This document shows positions 3,139 to 57,466 of a DNA stretch of 64,000 nt, in pieces. Under the pieces are notes generated by a model, which was not told the DNA's origin, made no database searches, and worked only from the letters and a program-made list of their open reading frames with translations. The position numbers and the translations under genes are program-made. Origin of the DNA: an uncultured Candidatus Saccharibacteria bacterium (GTDB taxonomy: Bacteria; Patescibacteriota; Minisyncoccia; Phycocordibacterales; UBA1550); the NCBI GenBank assembly GCA_964642305.1, contig CAZXOE010000005.1, positions 13,369 to 77,368 on the forward strand, read 5' to 3'. The stretch's first letter is position 1; every line of letters starts with the position of its first letter.

Positions 3139-3646
3139 GTTGTGAATTGTCCCTCATCTTTTGCAATTTCTCTATCGCTCTGTGTATCCGCACCGAGATA
3201 ACATTTTCTGTTTCCTTTGTGAGATGCGCGATGTCTTTTACCGAGAGCCCATCCACGTGTCGCATCACGAGCGCTTCCCTGTATTTGTCTGGGAGACATT
3301 CGAGGAGAGCCATCGCATTCGCGTGTTCGTCCTTTGTTTCAATATCTCGCATTGATTCAGTGCCGATATCAAAACCTTCTTCGTCACGCATGCGGTCCAG
3401 CGACTCATCCTTCTTTTTGCGATATTCATCAATGATCAAGTTGTTTGCTATGCGGTACAAAAACGCTCGCATATTGTCTATCTCCTTGCCCTGCGCCATG
3501 TATTCCCAAAGGCGGACGAAACTTCCCTGAGCTAAATCCTTTGCCTTTTCCCTGTCAGATACACGGAAAACACAGTGCCGAAAGATTGCGTCGGCAAATT
3601 GGTCATAAGCTTTAAGGAATTCTTGTTCAACCGCATTTGGTTTCAT
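3122..3646 (-). CDS. RNA polymerase sigma factor, ECF (sigma-70 region 2 and region 4)
   Basis: Region 2 (IIDEYRKK) and a region 4 HTH (LSVKDIAHLTKETENVISVRIHRA). Confidence 0.8.
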   Translation of the reverse strand: MKPNAVEQEFLKAYDQFADAIFRHCVFRVSDREKAKDLAQGSFVRLWEYMAQGKEIDNMRAFLYRIANNLIIDEYRKKKDESLDRMRDEEGFDIGTESMRDIETKDEHANAMALLECLPDKYREALVMRHVDGLSVKDIAHLTKETENVISVRIHRAIEKLQKMRDNSQHGKHN

Positions 3647-3713: not shown

Positions 3714-4322
3714 TTATTTTACCTTGTCAAAGTGTTCAAAGAGTAACGGCAAACCTACAATGAGAACAATAAAAAGGATAATAATTGCTCCTAGTGCAAA
3801 AAGGTGTAAAAAACTACTTGGGAAAAATATCTGCCTTAGCTCCTTGAATGTTTTTGGGGTCGGCTTTTCATGGTCTAGCAACAAGCCGACTGCGTAACCT
3901 TGTATAATTAGATCATATTTCAAAATAAAGGCAGCGACGATAACAGTTACAAAATTCGTAAAAATAAGGCTTTCTAAAATGAAGTCATTATAAAAAGCGA
4001 AACCAAAATAAACCAGGACGAATACCACAACCACTCCGCCTAAAATTTCCCTCCATTTGTTTTCAGAATCCTCGCCAAAATTTTTTCCCATTTCAGTTTT
4101 TTCCCTAATTTGGTTTTGAATATTTGCATTGCCATATTTAATTGAAAATAATCCCCAAAAAATCATTGTGCACAAAAGTATGGAGAAGTAAAAAATCTCT
4201 TCACCTGATGATGCTGAATAATAAAAAAGAGCTGTGAGGACAAGCACAGGAATACTTTCAAGAGCAAAAAGGAAAGCTGTTATTAGGGTACTCGATTTAT
4301 TATTTGGATTACTGAAAAACAT
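3714..4322 (-). CDS. Hypothetical polytopic membrane protein
   Basis: 202 aa with about 6 hydrophobic helices. Confidence 0.45.
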   Translation of the reverse strand: MFFSNPNNKSSTLITAFLFALESIPVLVLTALFYYSASSGEEIFYFSILLCTMIFWGLFSIKYGNANIQNQIREKTEMGKNFGEDSENKWREILGGVVVVFVLVYFGFAFYNDFILESLIFTNFVTVIVAAFILKYDLIIQGYAVGLLLDHEKPTPKTFKELRQIFFPSSFLHLFALGAIIILFIVLIVGLPLLFEHFDKVK

Positions 4323-39189: not shown

Positions 39190-40080
39190 TTAGAGACCTT
39201 TTTCCGCCTCTAAAAACACCCCTATCTCCCCGTCTTCAAGAACAGCGTCAACGTTTGAGGTTTCTACATTTGTGCGATGGTCCTTCACCATTTTATATGG
39301 ATGAAGCACGTATGAGCGAATTTGATTCCCCCACTCTATCTCAGTGGTCTTTGAAATATACATTCCGCTTTCTGTGGCCTTTCTCTCGTCATCCTGTTTC
39401 TTAAAAAGTTTACCTTTCAAAATCTGTACAGCCTTTTCGCGGTTCTGCTCCTGCGAGCGCTCGGTCTCCACATGCACAGCGATGCCAGTCGGTATATGCA
39501 CCACACGCACTGCTGTCTCACGCTTGTTCACATTCTGCCCTCCAGGACCAGACGAGCGACTAAACTCAATCTTAATGTCGTCTGCTGGGATATTGATATC
39601 GTCGCTTCCACTGTCCTTGAAATCTGGGATAACTTCAACCATTGAAAAAGATGTGTGACGGAGCTGTTTTGCGTTAAAAGGAGAAATGCGAACAAGGCGA
39701 TGCACGCCAGATTCATTCTTTAGCATACCGTATGCATTCTTGCCGTGAATCTCGAGTGTGATGTTGCGATACCCACCGTGATCATTTTTATTCTCATGCA
39801 GAAGCTTTACTTCAAAATTCTGCTTCTCAAAAAACTTTAGGTACATACGCACGAGCATCCCAGAAAAATCCTCTGCATCATCCCCGCCCGCGCCCGAAAA
39901 AATAGTCATCACTGCATTACCACGATCATATTTACCTACGCCAGCAATTTTTTCTTTAAGCTCTGCGATTTCCTTTATTACCGACTGAGCGTGTATTTTG
40001 TCAGACCAAAAATCCACAGAATTCATTTCTGCCTCAAGCTCTAGAATTTTCGCCTGCATTTGCTCCTTTGACTGTTGCAT
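39190..40080 (-). CDS. prfB: Peptide chain release factor 2, N-terminally short form with no upstream frameshift window
   Basis: SPF tripeptide and GGQ (SGPGGQNVNK). An extended -10 (TGCTATAAT) lies 7 nt upstream of the ATG. Confidence 0.85.
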   Translation of the reverse strand: MQQSKEQMQAKILELEAEMNSVDFWSDKIHAQSVIKEIAELKEKIAGVGKYDRGNAVMTIFSGAGGDDAEDFSGMLVRMYLKFFEKQNFEVKLLHENKNDHGGYRNITLEIHGKNAYGMLKNESGVHRLVRISPFNAKQLRHTSFSMVEVIPDFKDSGSDDINIPADDIKIEFSRSSGPGGQNVNKRETAVRVVHIPTGIAVHVETERSQEQNREKAVQILKGKLFKKQDDERKATESGMYISKTTEIEWGNQIRSYVLHPYKMVKDHRTNVETSNVDAVLEDGEIGVFLEAEKGL

Positions 40081-40911: not shown

Positions 40912-41047
40912 TATGGAGCCGATGTCCGGGGGCTCACTGCTCGCTCGCAGGCTCGCTTCGCTTTAGAAACCCACGGTTTCTAACTTTTTCCTCCACGGGA
41001 AACTCCCGTTTCCCGACCCCTTCCCAGGTTCAATCCCGGACATCGGC
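40912..41047 (-). other. tRNA-derived hairpin element of about 135 nt: 13 bp terminal stem copied from the tRNA-Thr T-arm and acceptor, internal GNRA-capped hairpins, 3' CCA
   Basis: Minus-strand 5' GCCGATGTCCGGG ... CCCGGACATCGGC-TCCA 3'. Internal CGGGAAAC-GGGA-GTTTCCCG and TTAGAAACC-GTG-GGTTTCTAA hairpins. Confidence 0.45.
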
Positions 41048-41051
41048 ATAT

Positions 41052-41087
41052 CAAATAGATAATTCTTAATTACGAATTATCTATTGG
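41052..41087 (-). terminator. Hairpin immediately 3' of tRNA-Thr(GGT)
   Basis: AATAGATAATTC-TTAATTAC-GAATTATCTATT. Confidence 0.6.
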
Positions 41088-41094
41088 AGCCGAT

Positions 41095-41170
41095 GTCCGG
41101 GATTGAACCGGAGACCTCGTCCTTACCAAGGACGCACTCTACCAACTGAGCTACATCGGCTTATATTTTA
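41095..41170 (-). tRNA. tRNA-Thr (anticodon GGT), CCA encoded
   Basis: GCCGATGTAGCTCAGTTGGTAGAGTGCGTCCTTGGTAAGGACGAGGTCTCCGGTTCAATCCCGGACATCGGCTCCA. Confidence 0.85.
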
Positions 41171-41554
41171 TTCTCACAGTATAGACAGACGTAGTGTTCA
41201 TGCTTACCTACCAAAACAGCTACATCGGCTTACTATACACCACGACACGATACACTATTTAGCGCATTCTTTCAATCAAAATGATAGCAAAAAGGTCCGG
41301 ATTATCGGATCTTTTGCTACTCCGTCACTTTTATCAACTTTGAGTTACGAAACTCAGGTATTCCTCGTATCGTCTTTGCGAACGAAGTGAAGCAATCTAG
41401 AATTAAGCACGCTACACACTGGATCACTTCGTCAGAGTACCTCCTCGTGAGGACGGAAGAATCAGAGTTTCGTAATTCAAAGTTTATCAAAGCTAAACCT
41501 TGATAAAAGTTTAACAAACTTACGAGAAAGACTTCATTGGGGATAGTATTATTT

Positions 41555-41891
41555 ATTAGCGACGTAGACGAATCACCAGATTCGCGTCTTGGACGAAGAT
41601 AAAAAAGTAATCTTTTTCAGTACTGAGCCGAGGAGCTAATATATGGAGTACCATATAATGACGGCACTCGGACGTTGTGAAAGAGATTACTCATTCACAC
41701 GCTCCTCGTTTGTCATTATAGGTCAATACCGCGTGGTCTCAGCGTCCAAGACGTGAATTTGCTAATTCAGCCACGCTTTTGTACTCGACCTTTAGGTCAT
41801 TCTGGTGAATGAGAAGCGAATTCGAAGTATTTTAGGTCCAAGACCCGAATCTACTGATTCGCCTGCAGTCTCTGCCGCAGGGGCCTATATT
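41555..41891 (+). repeat. Copy A (long form, 337 bp) of a three-copy structured repeat family
   Basis: Shares blocks ATTAGCGACGTAG, GAGCCGAGGAGCTAATATA, GCGAATTCGAAGTATT and the terminal hairpin ...TCTCTGCCGCAGGGGCCTATATT with copies at 46840-46998 and 63598-63757. Confidence 0.8.
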
Positions 41892-45579: not shown

Positions 45580-45654
45580 CGCGGTCGACCGGACTTGAAC
45601 CGGCAACCTCTCGCGTGACAGGCGAGTGCTACTAACCAGTTGAGCTACGACCGC
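45580..45654 (-). tRNA. tRNA-Asp (anticodon GTC)
   Basis: Acceptor GCGGTCG/CGACCGC, anticodon loop CTGTCAC, T-loop TTCAAGT, discriminator G. Confidence 0.8.
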
Positions 45655-46334
45655 AAATTCTTAAATTTGCCATATTTTTCAAACACAGCCTTCTTCCTAT
45701 CAAGAAAAAGCTTGTTCTTTGTATGACTTCTATGATTATACATAAAATCATAGAATTTCAAAGAGTCTTTTGTGCCAAACTGCAGACGGTAGCAATTTTC
45801 CTTTGGCTGGAAAATCGACCCTCCTTCAATGCCATAAATATTGAGCCTTTTGCGTATACTTTCTAAAAATACTTTTGAACACGAGGTTAATGCCACTTGA
45901 ATGGCAAGGCCTTGAGTTTCCCTCTCTTTATGAGTCACCCCAACCCAAACATTTCCATCACCATCAAAGTATCCTCTGACGAAATCAGAAAAATATTTTT
46001 GAGGGATGATTGGAACGACCAGATTTTTTGTTTTTCGCTCAGAGAAGCCAAGCTCTCTCAAATCCTCACACATCTCAATACTTCCAATCTGTAAACGATA
46101 AAGCGTGCTTTCATTTCCCCGCATAACACGAGTACTAATTTTGTGTTCCGACTGGATAGCTTTACGTATTTGCTCAAGAAGCTTTTTGTCAGTTATTTGA
46201 ATGCACCAAAATTGTCCACCTCGCTTGTTAACAGTAATGTACCCGTCAGCTGCAAAAAAACCTAGCACGTATGACATTTCTGGTGTCCATTTTTTAAAAA
46301 AACCTTTGTTTACTTTTTTTAATACTGGCACCAA
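45645..46334 (-). CDS. LAGLIDADG homing endonuclease (two motifs), free-standing; its 3' end overlaps the tRNA-Asp 5' end by 10 nt
   Basis: LGFFAADGY and RGYFDGDGN motifs. Confidence 0.8.
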   Translation of the reverse strand: MVPVLKKVNKGFFKKWTPEMSYVLGFFAADGYITVNKRGGQFWCIQITDKKLLEQIRKAIQSEHKISTRVMRGNESTLYRLQIGSIEMCEDLRELGFSERKTKNLVVPIIPQKYFSDFVRGYFDGDGNVWVGVTHKERETQGLAIQVALTSCSKVFLESIRKRLNIYGIEGGSIFQPKENCYRLQFGTKDSLKFYDFMYNHRSHTKNKLFLDRKKAVFEKYGKFKNLRS

Positions 46335-56906: not shown

Positions 56907-57398
56907 GTCCGAACCGTCTATTGCGAAAGCTATATCCTCACCTACTGCATACGAGTAAGCTCTCGAGCTTCCTACACTGTCAACACACCAGGAATCTGGC
57001 TCGTTTGCAGGCGCAGGGCCATCTGATGATTTAAGCTGTACGGCAACCGCCCATGTGGTAGCAGTAGCAACACATCTGCTTAGTGATGCTCCACCAGCCT
57101 TTGTGTATGCCTCACTCACTCCTGAAAAGATCTTGGCGTCTGCAAAGATATTTCCTGACGACACTACTGTTGGACAGGTAGACGAAGCGTATTCATTCCC
57201 AGCAGATGCATACTCCTGACTATTGTCATCATACCAAATGCTTGCCATTCCGCGGAGGTTGGTTATGTTGGACTTGATTGCCGCGTCAGTAGCTTTTGTG
57301 CGAGCAGTATTAAGAGACCCCAAAACAACCGATGCGAGAATACCGATGATTGCAATTACGATGAGAATTTCTATTAATGTAAAACCTTTTTTATACAT
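56895..57398 (-). CDS. Type IV major pilin paralog 1; start set at the internal Met
   Basis: [25 protein letters not shown]. Confidence 0.8.
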   Translation of the reverse strand: MYKKGFTLIEILIVIAIIGILASVVLGSLNTARTKATDAAIKSNITNLRGMASIWYDDNSQEYASAGNEYASSTCPTVVSSGNIFADAKIFSGVSEAYTKAGGASLSRCVATATTWAVAVQLKSSDGPAPANEPDSWCVDSVGSSRAYSYAVGEDIAFAIDGSDACR

Positions 57399-57430
57399 TA
57401 TATGGATAATAACATAATCTTTATTTAAAC

Positions 57431-57466
57431 AAAACAAAACCCCGCAGAATTGCGGGGTTTTGTTTT
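57431..57466 (-). terminator. Hairpin terminator after pilin paralog 2
   Basis: AAAACAAAACCCCGCA-GAAT-TGCGGGGTTTTGTTTT. Confidence 0.8.

Follow-up and report, generated by a model that had tools for sequence, protein, structure and literature searches.

A candidate mobile insertion cassette that copies gene ends in candidate phyla radiation bacteria, recognized beside a tRNA-Thr gene

The window analyzed here is a stretch of 64,000 nucleotides (nt) from an uncultured Candidatus Saccharibacteria bacterium (contig CAZXOE010000005.1, positions 13,369 to 77,368), and it carries a hairpin element of unusual design on its minus strand, at positions 40912 to 41047, between two tRNA-Thr genes. A sequence-only reading had suggested that this element could be a processed tRNA-like noncoding RNA (ncRNA) or a rearranged pseudo-tRNA. 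We propose instead, with moderate confidence, that it is a copy of a small, nonautonomous, horizontally mobile, and site-specific insertion cassette of the candidate phyla radiation (CPR)/Patescibacteria and not a tRNA-like gene. The widespread family, or set of families, to which it belongs, miniature elements of CPR/Patescibacteria that contain no protein gene and copy gene ends, is apparently undescribed. Its members share one layout: gene body, a segment X, a new gene end, usually a hairpin, an inverted copy of X, a core of two hairpins, a second direct copy of X (X'), and the orphaned old gene end. X is a highly conserved stretch of 10 to 25 nt near either end of an essential gene, and X' carries a short junction scar. 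Sequences other than the window are cited by L number.

The family was collected from metagenome stretches with the pattern CGTGGAGGAA N{4,34} AACCGTGGGTTTC, which kept two core strings fixed and left the covarying stem positions free; the invariance of the two strings is no evidence of conservation, since the pattern itself fixes it. Among the matches listed, on which all pattern-based counts rest, the pattern was found in at least 120 stretches and gave 128 hits and 96 unique complete elements. Elements measure about 100 to 200 nt across the family and are of uniform size, with the same core of 65 to 90 nt at more than 30 different targets. Covariation is strong in both core hairpins, and the interior of the core is under structural selection: in 103 aligned matches of a covariance model (R1), 97.3% of the stem cells are paired, 13 of the 18 pairs change on both sides, and the core stems contain 173 compensatory cells, values reached by none of 500 shuffles, with all slid registers far worse. 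The conservation in relatives and the covariation of the inner helices on which the sequence-only reading had made its case depend are both present. R1 matched the window once (69.4 bits, E = 3e-18) and recovered nine copies in 8 of 80 CPR genome loci anchored on release factor 2 (RF2; 752 kb in total). Homologous elements stand at the same place in L007, L040, and L062, each with covarying hairpin stems and with end repeats that fit the local tRNA.

At least three core families share this layout. Type 2 was found in L006, L095, L101, L103, and L210 (positions 3440 to 3535 in the last) and contains GAGGYGGGGTCGCGAG. The type-3 core reads GCGGGCCGCAGCACCCGAAGAGGGTGCG..., and one of the other cores lies in L210 at 3810 to 3935. 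L049 may hold a further type; the other core families, too, consist of an inverted target copy, a core, and a direct target copy. A short open reading frame (ORF) that starts with MGKPWVSQ, downstream of a GGAGGAA motif, is in frame with the orphan C terminus in 6 of about 11 copies; it was dropped as a general feature because it is absent from the window copy.

The targets are diverse. A tRNA gene lies 50 to 260 nt upstream on the same strand in 64 of the 128 pattern hits, and the tRNA targets cover 16 amino acids when covariance-model hits after tRNA-Asp are counted. tmRNA is a further target, with the element downstream. About half of the copies are attached to protein genes, and there the repeats are coding sequence: the element follows the C termini of S9, L33, L7/L12, L11, UvrC, and a histidine kinase, and it lies antiparallel to the gene at the N termini of DnaK, DnaX, MurD, and a GT4 glycosyltransferase. 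X is usually the most conserved motif near the gene end, such as GIDLGTTNS in DnaK, YRPQTF in DnaX, PQWSKR in S9, and CKWC in L33, and the duplicated segment ranges from about 10 nt to at least 90 nt. The element always sits just outside an intact gene end, and the gene is never disrupted.

The copies of the target are not due to chance, as both the inverted and the direct copies are far longer than in shuffled flanks. When the longest perfect runs were compared between the 96 unique complete elements and their shuffled flanks, the upstream target and the inverted copy shared a median of 11 nt, with at least 10 nt in 71 of 96 elements (shuffled, 1 of 96), and the upstream target and the downstream direct copy shared a median of 9.5 nt, with at least 10 nt in 48 of 96 (shuffled, 0 of 96). 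Between the inverted copy and the downstream copy, that is, along the "terminal stem," the median run was 6 nt (shuffled, 5 nt), and only 8 of 96 elements reached 10 nt (shuffled, 0 of 96). A closed minihelix is thus not what selection keeps. The perfect direct repeat begins 7 to 10 nt past the foot of hairpin B, the second core hairpin, in 29 of 59 scorable elements, and this fixed distance argues that the junction is set by the core and not by the target. A second group starts at 18 to 19 nt, where an extra mini-hairpin was read in the tail. In the tail ahead of the direct copy, 3 to 5 nt agree with the beginning of X and precede a mismatch of 1 to 3 nt that is often T rich.

The two gene ends found at protein-gene copies differ mainly in synonymous positions. 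In-gene and orphan ends are separated by 11 synonymous and 2 nonsynonymous differences in L168, 10 and 4 in L188, 8 and 2 in L172, 7 and 3 in L150, 7 and 2 in L119, 5 and 1 in L189, and 4 and 1 in L103, with the nonsynonymous differences mostly at junction codons (alignments read by eye). Since the ends encode nearly the same peptide with different codons, both must have evolved as working gene ends, in different lineages, and one of them has therefore come with the element. The window and L011 have almost identical 5' halves of the core, with RF2 proteins that are only 70% identical, and in each the repeats fit the local tRNA. The presence of the element is patchy among relatives: a tRNA identical to the tRNA-Thr(GGT) of the window occurs in L206, L210, and L004, and relatives with this identical tRNA and about 90% identical RF2 have no type-1 element. 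L206 has an empty site at the identical tRNA, and in L210 the same tRNA is followed by the usual layout built around another core, with a hairpin and an inverted copy of the tRNA end ahead of it and a direct copy behind. Two elements stand in tandem at one tRNA in L095 and L101, and L126 is a chimera whose inverted copy stems from tRNA-Phe and whose orphan end stems from tRNA-Gln. L126 and L169 are identical in tRNA-Phe and core; after the element, L126 continues with the tRNA-Gln 3' end and L169 with unrelated sequence, a difference that points to rearrangement by recombination between element copies.

These distributions bear on two other explanations. The first is a cis element that benefits its host, by 3'-end protection or termination or as a decoy attachment site, and that has spread by ordinary recombination. 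It would account for the position outside an intact, never disrupted gene end, for the long hairpin formed with that end, and for the terminator-like hairpins that are carried along, and homologous exchange between lineages can account for imported gene ends. The patchy distribution among close relatives and the tandem and chimeric copies do not fit it, and recombination alone leaves both the new inverted and direct copies at more than 30 targets and the fixed distance of the junction from hairpin B unexplained; we consider it improbable. The second is a decayed integrase-type island or prophage in tRNA-Thr(GGT), with the repeat as attL and attR, or else a pseudo-tRNA produced by local duplication. 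A direct repeat of a tRNA 3' end (17 nt, exact) is a classic integrase signature, and tRNA-Thr(GGT) is indeed used by islands: L004, the closest relative among GTDB species genomes (RF2 90% identical), has a tyrosine-recombinase-like gene (1500 to 2320, read by eye) directly upstream of a tRNA-Thr(GGT) 3' fragment that spans the anticodon loop to the 3' end, which suggests a conventional integrase island there. Still, a single integrase specificity cannot account for one core at so many targets (more than 30), structural selection acts on the interior, the elements are uniform in size, no integrase remnant was seen beside any copy, and attachment-site remnants leave the inverted target copy unexplained. 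The target range largely refutes an island remnant, to which we give very little credence.

The anatomy of the window copy is summarized in Table 1. From 5' to 3', the tRNA is followed by the palindromic spacer, the inverted tRNA 3' end, core and tail (together about 95 nt), and the direct tRNA 3' end. No further copy was found in the window by blastn or by the covariance model with its filters off.

Table 1. Parts of the window copy and the flanking tRNA genes; coordinates are given on the minus strand
Feature	Position	Strand	Basis
tRNA-Thr(GGT), target gene, with encoded CCA	41085..41160	-	ARAGORN; Rfam tRNA, 67.7 bits
Copied part of the tRNA (X and gene end), T loop to CCA	~41085-41114	-	within tRNA-Thr(GGT)
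AT-rich palindromic spacer ATAGATAATTC-GTAATTAA-GAATTATCTAT, then TTGATAT	41048..41084	-	repeat search (I7)
inv(X), inverted copy of the tRNA 3' end, GCCGATGTCCGGGATTGAACCtGGGA	41022..41047	-	repeat I4
Conserved type-1 core: linker GGGAAGGGGT, hairpin A, linker TGGAGGAAAAAG, hairpin B	40962..41024	-	covariance model R1
Hairpin A, CGGGAAAC-GGGA-GTTTCCCG	41015-40996	-	read from sequence
Hairpin B, TTAGAAACC-GTG-GGTTTCTAA	40983-40963	-	read from sequence
Variable 3' tail of the core, GCGAAGCGAGCCTGCGAGCGAGCAGTGAGCC	40931..40961	-	read from sequence
Orphan direct copy of the tRNA 3' end (X' and gene end), CCCGGACATCGGC and TCCA	40914..40930	-	repeat D7
tRNA-Thr(CGT), on the other side of the element	40826-40753	-	ARAGORN

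The description given in the sequence-only reading held up well. The terminal stem derived from the T arm and acceptor of the adjacent tRNA-Thr(GGT) is present, with GCCGATGTCCGGG (41047 to 41035) pairing perfectly with CCCGGACATCGGC (40930 to 40918) over 13 bp and TCCA following at 40917 to 40914. It encloses 104 nt (about 105 in the sequence-only reading), including the two perfect inner hairpins with GGGA and GTG loops and the GCGAGC-rich stretch (40962 to 40931). ARAGORN places the element between tRNA-Thr(GGT) and tRNA-Thr(CGT), and ARAGORN and Rfam RF00005 call these flanking genes and nothing on 40912 to 41047, in line with the view that it is not a canonical tRNA. It is not a tmRNA either: ARAGORN calls none, and an Rfam tmRNA_permuted match at 41030 to 41113 reaches 15.1 bits (gathering threshold, 47) and covers the tRNA and spacer side of the element. 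The stem corresponds to the 7-bp acceptor and 5-bp T stem of tRNA-Thr(GGT) with the discriminator base and CCA. Its 5' arm sits within a longer inverted copy of the tRNA 3' end, 26 nt with 92% complementarity (41022 to 41047 versus 41089 to 41114), that spans the acceptor 3' strand, the T-stem 3' strand, and the T loop; this inv(X) reads like a guide complementary to the target. The 17-nt sequence CCCGGACATCGGCTCCA occurs exactly twice in the 64 kb, once closing tRNA-Thr(GGT) and once closing the element, compared with 0.09 occurrences expected from shuffling. The linker GGGAAGGGGT is purine rich, and the tail GCGAAGCGAGCCTGCGAGCGAGCAGTGAGCC contains a GCGAAGC mini-hairpin motif and a GTGAG motif opposite the inverted T loop; similar tails are present in L182, L124, L100, and L011. 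Folded alone as RNA, the element reaches -62.6 kcal/mol (z = -4.1), which none of 200 shuffles equaled. In a joint fold of tRNA and element, the partner of the inverted copy is the 3' half of the tRNA itself and not the downstream copy, and the AT-rich spacer forms the tip of the resulting hairpin. In most family members, a terminator-like hairpin takes the position of this spacer.

What did not stand is the interpretation as a processed tRNA-like ncRNA or a rearranged pseudo-tRNA, given that one core is shared by more than 30 unrelated targets, among them the ends of protein genes, where the terminal repeats copy coding sequence and not a tRNA. On that interpretation, an acceptor/T-stem minihelix with CCA would be matured by RNase P and the CCA-adding enzyme and perhaps charged. 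The window stem, with its discriminator and CCA, the location in a tRNA cluster with no consensus terminator found upstream, and a joint fold that allows the tRNA 5' strand to pair with the orphan 3' end all agree with it. Against this, the closed stem is not conserved, the inverted copy has no acceptor part in many tRNA-linked copies, most of the carrier tRNA genes have no encoded CCA, and neither Rfam nor ARAGORN calls anything tRNA-like on the element. The CCA of the window element is there because the tRNA-Thr(GGT) gene encodes CCA and its end was duplicated, and the perfect acceptor-like minihelix is particular to the window copy, as so few elements reach a 10-nt run; the tRNA-like look therefore follows from the target. 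We regard a tRNA-like gene product as highly improbable.

Two sets of tRNA-like pieces were seen close to this subject. About 45 nt upstream of tRNA-Thr(GGT), after a promoter-like site, the window has a fragment resembling a tRNA 5' part (41206 to 41236, minus strand), GCCGATGTAG(C/G)TGTTTTGGTAGGT, which is similar to part of the L045 spacer. It is kept in L206 (2613 to 2640), which is element free, and so belongs to the tRNA leader and not to the element; it may be a leader element that mimics a tRNA 5' end. The spacers between the tRNA-Thr genes of L020, L031, and L076 contain tRNA 5'-like pieces with a GC-rich hairpin at the D-loop position, for example GCCATCCTAGCTCAGC-TTGCCCCGCCGTGGCGGGGTGAAG-TAGAGCAC; these pieces may represent decayed tRNA gene copies or insertions into tRNA genes.

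For the insertion cassette that we favor, the layout suggests the following model. The cassette would enter by a single crossover at the chromosomal X, and the mobile unit would comprise the remainder of X, the gene end, the spacer, the inverted X, the core, and the left part of X'. It would bring in a replacement gene end and displace the resident end, now orphaned, to the downstream side. With the purine-rich linker and hairpin A next to it, the inverted copy would guide the cassette by its complementarity to the target; the two similar hairpins of the same orientation would bind a recombinase or transposase encoded elsewhere in the genome; and the fixed junction 7 to 10 nt beyond hairpin B would be the point of cleavage or exchange. 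For the window, X would be the T loop, T stem, and acceptor 3' strand of tRNA-Thr(GGT), and the product would for that reason look like an acceptor/T-stem minihelix ending in CCA. The intermediate predicted for the window would have the joint ...GCAGTGAGCC (left part of X') joined to CCCGGACATCGGCTCCAATAGATAATTC... (remainder of X and new gene end). A simple snap-back origin of the inverted copy was rejected, as L200 has 75 nt of unmirrored gene end between X and the inverted copy.

From these sequence features, we infer a mechanism in which hairpins of single-stranded DNA recombine, and the folded form of the element would probably be single-stranded DNA. An RNA fold that is selected on one strand normally tolerates G.U pairs far more than A.C, and the mismatches in the core stems are equally rare, with 12 G.T and 13 A.C. 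The optional modules of the family are rich in GCGAAGC, GCGTAGC, GCGCAGC, and GCGGAGC, and we take such GCGNAGC strings to be the very stable d(GCGNAGC) mini-hairpins of DNA. Both the balance of mismatches and the mini-hairpins are hints that the folded form is DNA. A more far-reaching proposal, which we put forward only tentatively and with considerable doubt, is that the family constitutes a new class of nucleic-acid-guided homing cassettes without a protein in cis, in which the inverted copy, next to the scaffold of two hairpins, would direct an enzyme encoded elsewhere to cut and join the DNA at a set distance from these hairpins, and the replacement gene end would keep insertion harmless. 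Moving to another conserved motif would take nothing but a new inverted copy, and this would explain the more than 30 targets.

The element could also encode a structured RNA, an antisense or guide segment of which would be programmable and would pair with the RNA or DNA of the adjacent gene end, with the core acting as the scaffold for an RNA-guided enzyme encoded in trans or for a processing or stability factor; this is compatible with mobility, and we consider it unlikely. The scaffold, conserved and covarying, does have a target-complementary segment of 10 to 25 nt directly on its 5' side. The sequence between tRNA-Thr(GGT) and the element in the window gave no consensus terminator, and the two may therefore be cotranscribed; in such a cotranscript, the inverted copy would pair strongly with the 3' half of the tRNA. 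Conversely, the wobble pairs are no more common than A.C mismatches, which is unusual for a selected RNA fold, and in most copies a terminator-like hairpin parts the gene from the element. A guide that perfectly matches its own upstream gene would moreover target its own locus, and no TnpB, IscB, IS110, or other candidate effector is enriched nearby.

Searches for a partner gene or a known family gave little. Among 1,278 clustered ORFs within 5 kb of about 120 copies, no partner protein emerged, only housekeeping families, and no recombinase, TnpB, IscB, or IS110 was enriched there; no integrase remnant was seen next to a copy. A phmmer search for an IS200-type (Y1) transposase, with a TnpA-like probe, had no match in 1.63 Mb of sampled DNA, which is a weak negative. 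A search for autonomous long copies, in which cargo would split the core halves, gave just diverged short copies, and collections of phages, plasmids, and viral contigs contained no match to the core. The Rfam scan suggested by the sequence-only reading was negative, with no Rfam 15 family at its gathering threshold on the element; scans of the element region at relaxed thresholds, of the entire window, and of other loci returned just tRNA, tmRNA, and chance hairpins of the miRNA type, and nothing was obtained for the type-1, type-2, or type-3 cores in other loci. A literature search that included the core strings themselves yielded nothing relevant, so that the family is undescribed as far as these resources reach.

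Several points weigh against the cassette as we interpret it. Neither an excised or circular form, nor an intermediate, nor the enzyme was found. The inverted copy usually fits the in-gene X better than X', whereas the crossover model predicts a fit to the left part of X', and in L172 it fully fits neither local copy and stems from yet another lineage. No pair of empty and filled sites was found within a single species; L001, L002, and L212, the three contigs of the window's species that reach across the site, are all filled. The apparent conservation of the core is partly ascertainment by the fixed-string pattern. A role that benefits the host, such as 3'-end stabilization or termination, could explain persistence without selfishness, and the element may function at the RNA level. 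Concerning the native flanks, neither side of the window site has significant similarity to the empty site in L206, and the NUDIX neighbor had too few homologues to reach closer relatives.

No known system matches the element in all respects. With integrase islands and prophages at the 3' ends of tRNA, tmRNA, and protein genes it has in common insertion at conserved gene ends, the supply of a replacement end with the resident end left as an orphan direct repeat, tandem accretion at one site, and horizontal spread. Those islands, however, are 5 to 100 kb long and have an integrase and a single specificity, whereas the CPR element measures 0.1 to 0.2 kb, has no integrase, uses one core at more than 30 targets, contains an inverted target copy, and occurs at N-terminal ends as well. 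Miniature inverted-repeat transposable elements have terminal inverted repeats of their own and a fixed short duplication; in the CPR element, the repeats derive from the target and change from site to site, and the duplication varies in length.

Other likenesses are to single-strand transposons and to elements that integrate as folded single-stranded DNA. Like IS200/IS605 transposons, their miniature derivatives (PATEs), and REP/REPIN sequences mobilized by RAYT, the CPR element has no element-specific terminal inverted repeats. As in that group, there are two similar subterminal hairpins of the same orientation, A (CGGGAAAAC..GTTTTCCCG) and B (TGGGAAAACC-GTG-GGTTTCCCA), and the junction keeps a fixed distance from the right-hand hairpin, on its 3' side. 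A guide 5' of the hairpin that pairs with the target or cleavage site is also known from IS608, where it has 4 nt, compared with a complementary segment of 10 to 25 nt in the CPR element. PATEs and REPINs are copies without a protein that rely on an enzyme in trans, as the CPR element presumably does. IS200/IS605 and REP elements neither duplicate nor carry target sequence, in contrast to the CPR element; IS200/IS605 derivatives insert 3' of a target of 4 to 5 nt. A second likeness is to CTX-phi and integron attC sites: the two target-like sequences, inverted relative to each other and separated by about 90 nt, could form a duplex resembling the chromosomal target that would carry a mismatched patch near the exchange point, and recombination might be carried out by a host enzyme, as in CTX-phi. 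CTX-phi and attC use one fixed site (dif or attI), while the site mimicked by the CPR element changes with each target, and the CPR element has no phage or cassette gene; that its inverted sequences copy the local gene end, and not one fixed site, argues against membership in the Xer-dependent, CTX-phi-type group, which has paired inverted dif-like sites and integrates at dif; the resemblance is limited to the geometry of the hairpins. On these analogies, the CPR element resembles both the ends of IS200/IS605 and the folded attachment site of CTX-phi and appears to fit neither family.

Two further comparisons concern RNA. The omega RNA of TnpB and IscB and the bridge RNA of IS110 share with the CPR element a structured scaffold beside a segment that is complementary or identical to the insertion target; such guide-RNA transposons have their effector gene in cis, and the CPR element has none in cis, has no Rfam match, and duplicates the target end. 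The likeness to tRNA-like structures (the tmRNA domain, viral tRNA-like structures, and mascRNA), namely, an acceptor/T-stem stack of 12 to 13 bp with discriminator and CCA, is confined to the window copy. A T loop, D arm, and anticodon arm are absent, and the family does not keep the closed stem and occurs at protein genes too.

The surroundings of the window copy showed other peculiarities. Protein hits place the window in the CPR/Patescibacteria, within the Paceibacteria/Minisyncoccia group. Its neighbors encode a 975-amino-acid (aa) beta-propeller protein, NUDIX, RF2, IMP_cyclohyd (IMP cyclohydrolase-like), FtsE/X, and CTP synthase. The order tRNA-Thr(GGT), tRNA-Thr(CGT), RF2 is widespread, and usually just 5 to 100 nt separates the two tRNAs. 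Compared with L204 to L211, the Met-Met-Asp-Thr-Thr tRNA cluster of the window is enlarged by inserted ORFs of 105 aa (helix-turn-helix), 147, 158, and 975 aa, and between tRNA-Met and tRNA-Asp, where relatives have about 170 nt, lies an ORF for a LAGLIDADG homing endonuclease (45645 to 46334, minus strand; PF14528 and PF00961). A second small repeat, GTCCAAGACGCGAATC..GATTCGC, a hairpin module, occurs in mixed orientation at 41563 to 41595, 41743 to 41775, and 41836 to 41864, between the 975-aa gene and the tRNA leader; further examples are located within hairpin A of the element in L182 and behind the type-2 core of L210 (3500 to 3535). The RF2 ORF (39190 to 40080, minus strand) begins at position 95 of the 194-position PCRF model, and gene-caller products have 289 to 308 aa; such a start fits the programmed +1 frameshift that is usual for prfB, the first part of the gene then lying upstream. 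An Rfam match to isrJ at 57390 to 57461 on the plus strand (38.1 bits versus a gathering threshold of 37, E = 0.002) is probably a false positive, because isrJ is a small RNA family of Salmonella and the host belongs to the CPR.

Some contigs begin near such elements. About 10 of the 128 hits lie within some 120 nt of the start of their contig, and a contig of the same species from another sample (L214, 1 to 10, equivalent to about 40909 in the window) starts 5 nt after the orphan tRNA end, as would be expected if the elements act as repeats or if strains differ at these sites. Through the orphaned tRNA 3' ends, pseudo gene ends, and long palindromes that they create, such elements can mislead tRNA and gene callers and break assemblies.

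If the proposed cassette is real, the small genomes of the CPR harbor a common mobile element that has so far gone unnoticed. It would target the most conserved parts of essential genes (tRNA T loops, tmRNA, ribosomal proteins, DnaK, and DnaX) and would do so without damage to the gene, since a spare end travels along, which would be a new answer to a problem common to homing elements. The combination of a target-complementary segment and a scaffold suggests programmable insertion with a requirement of only about 70 to 100 nt in cis, which would be relevant both to transposition and to genome engineering.

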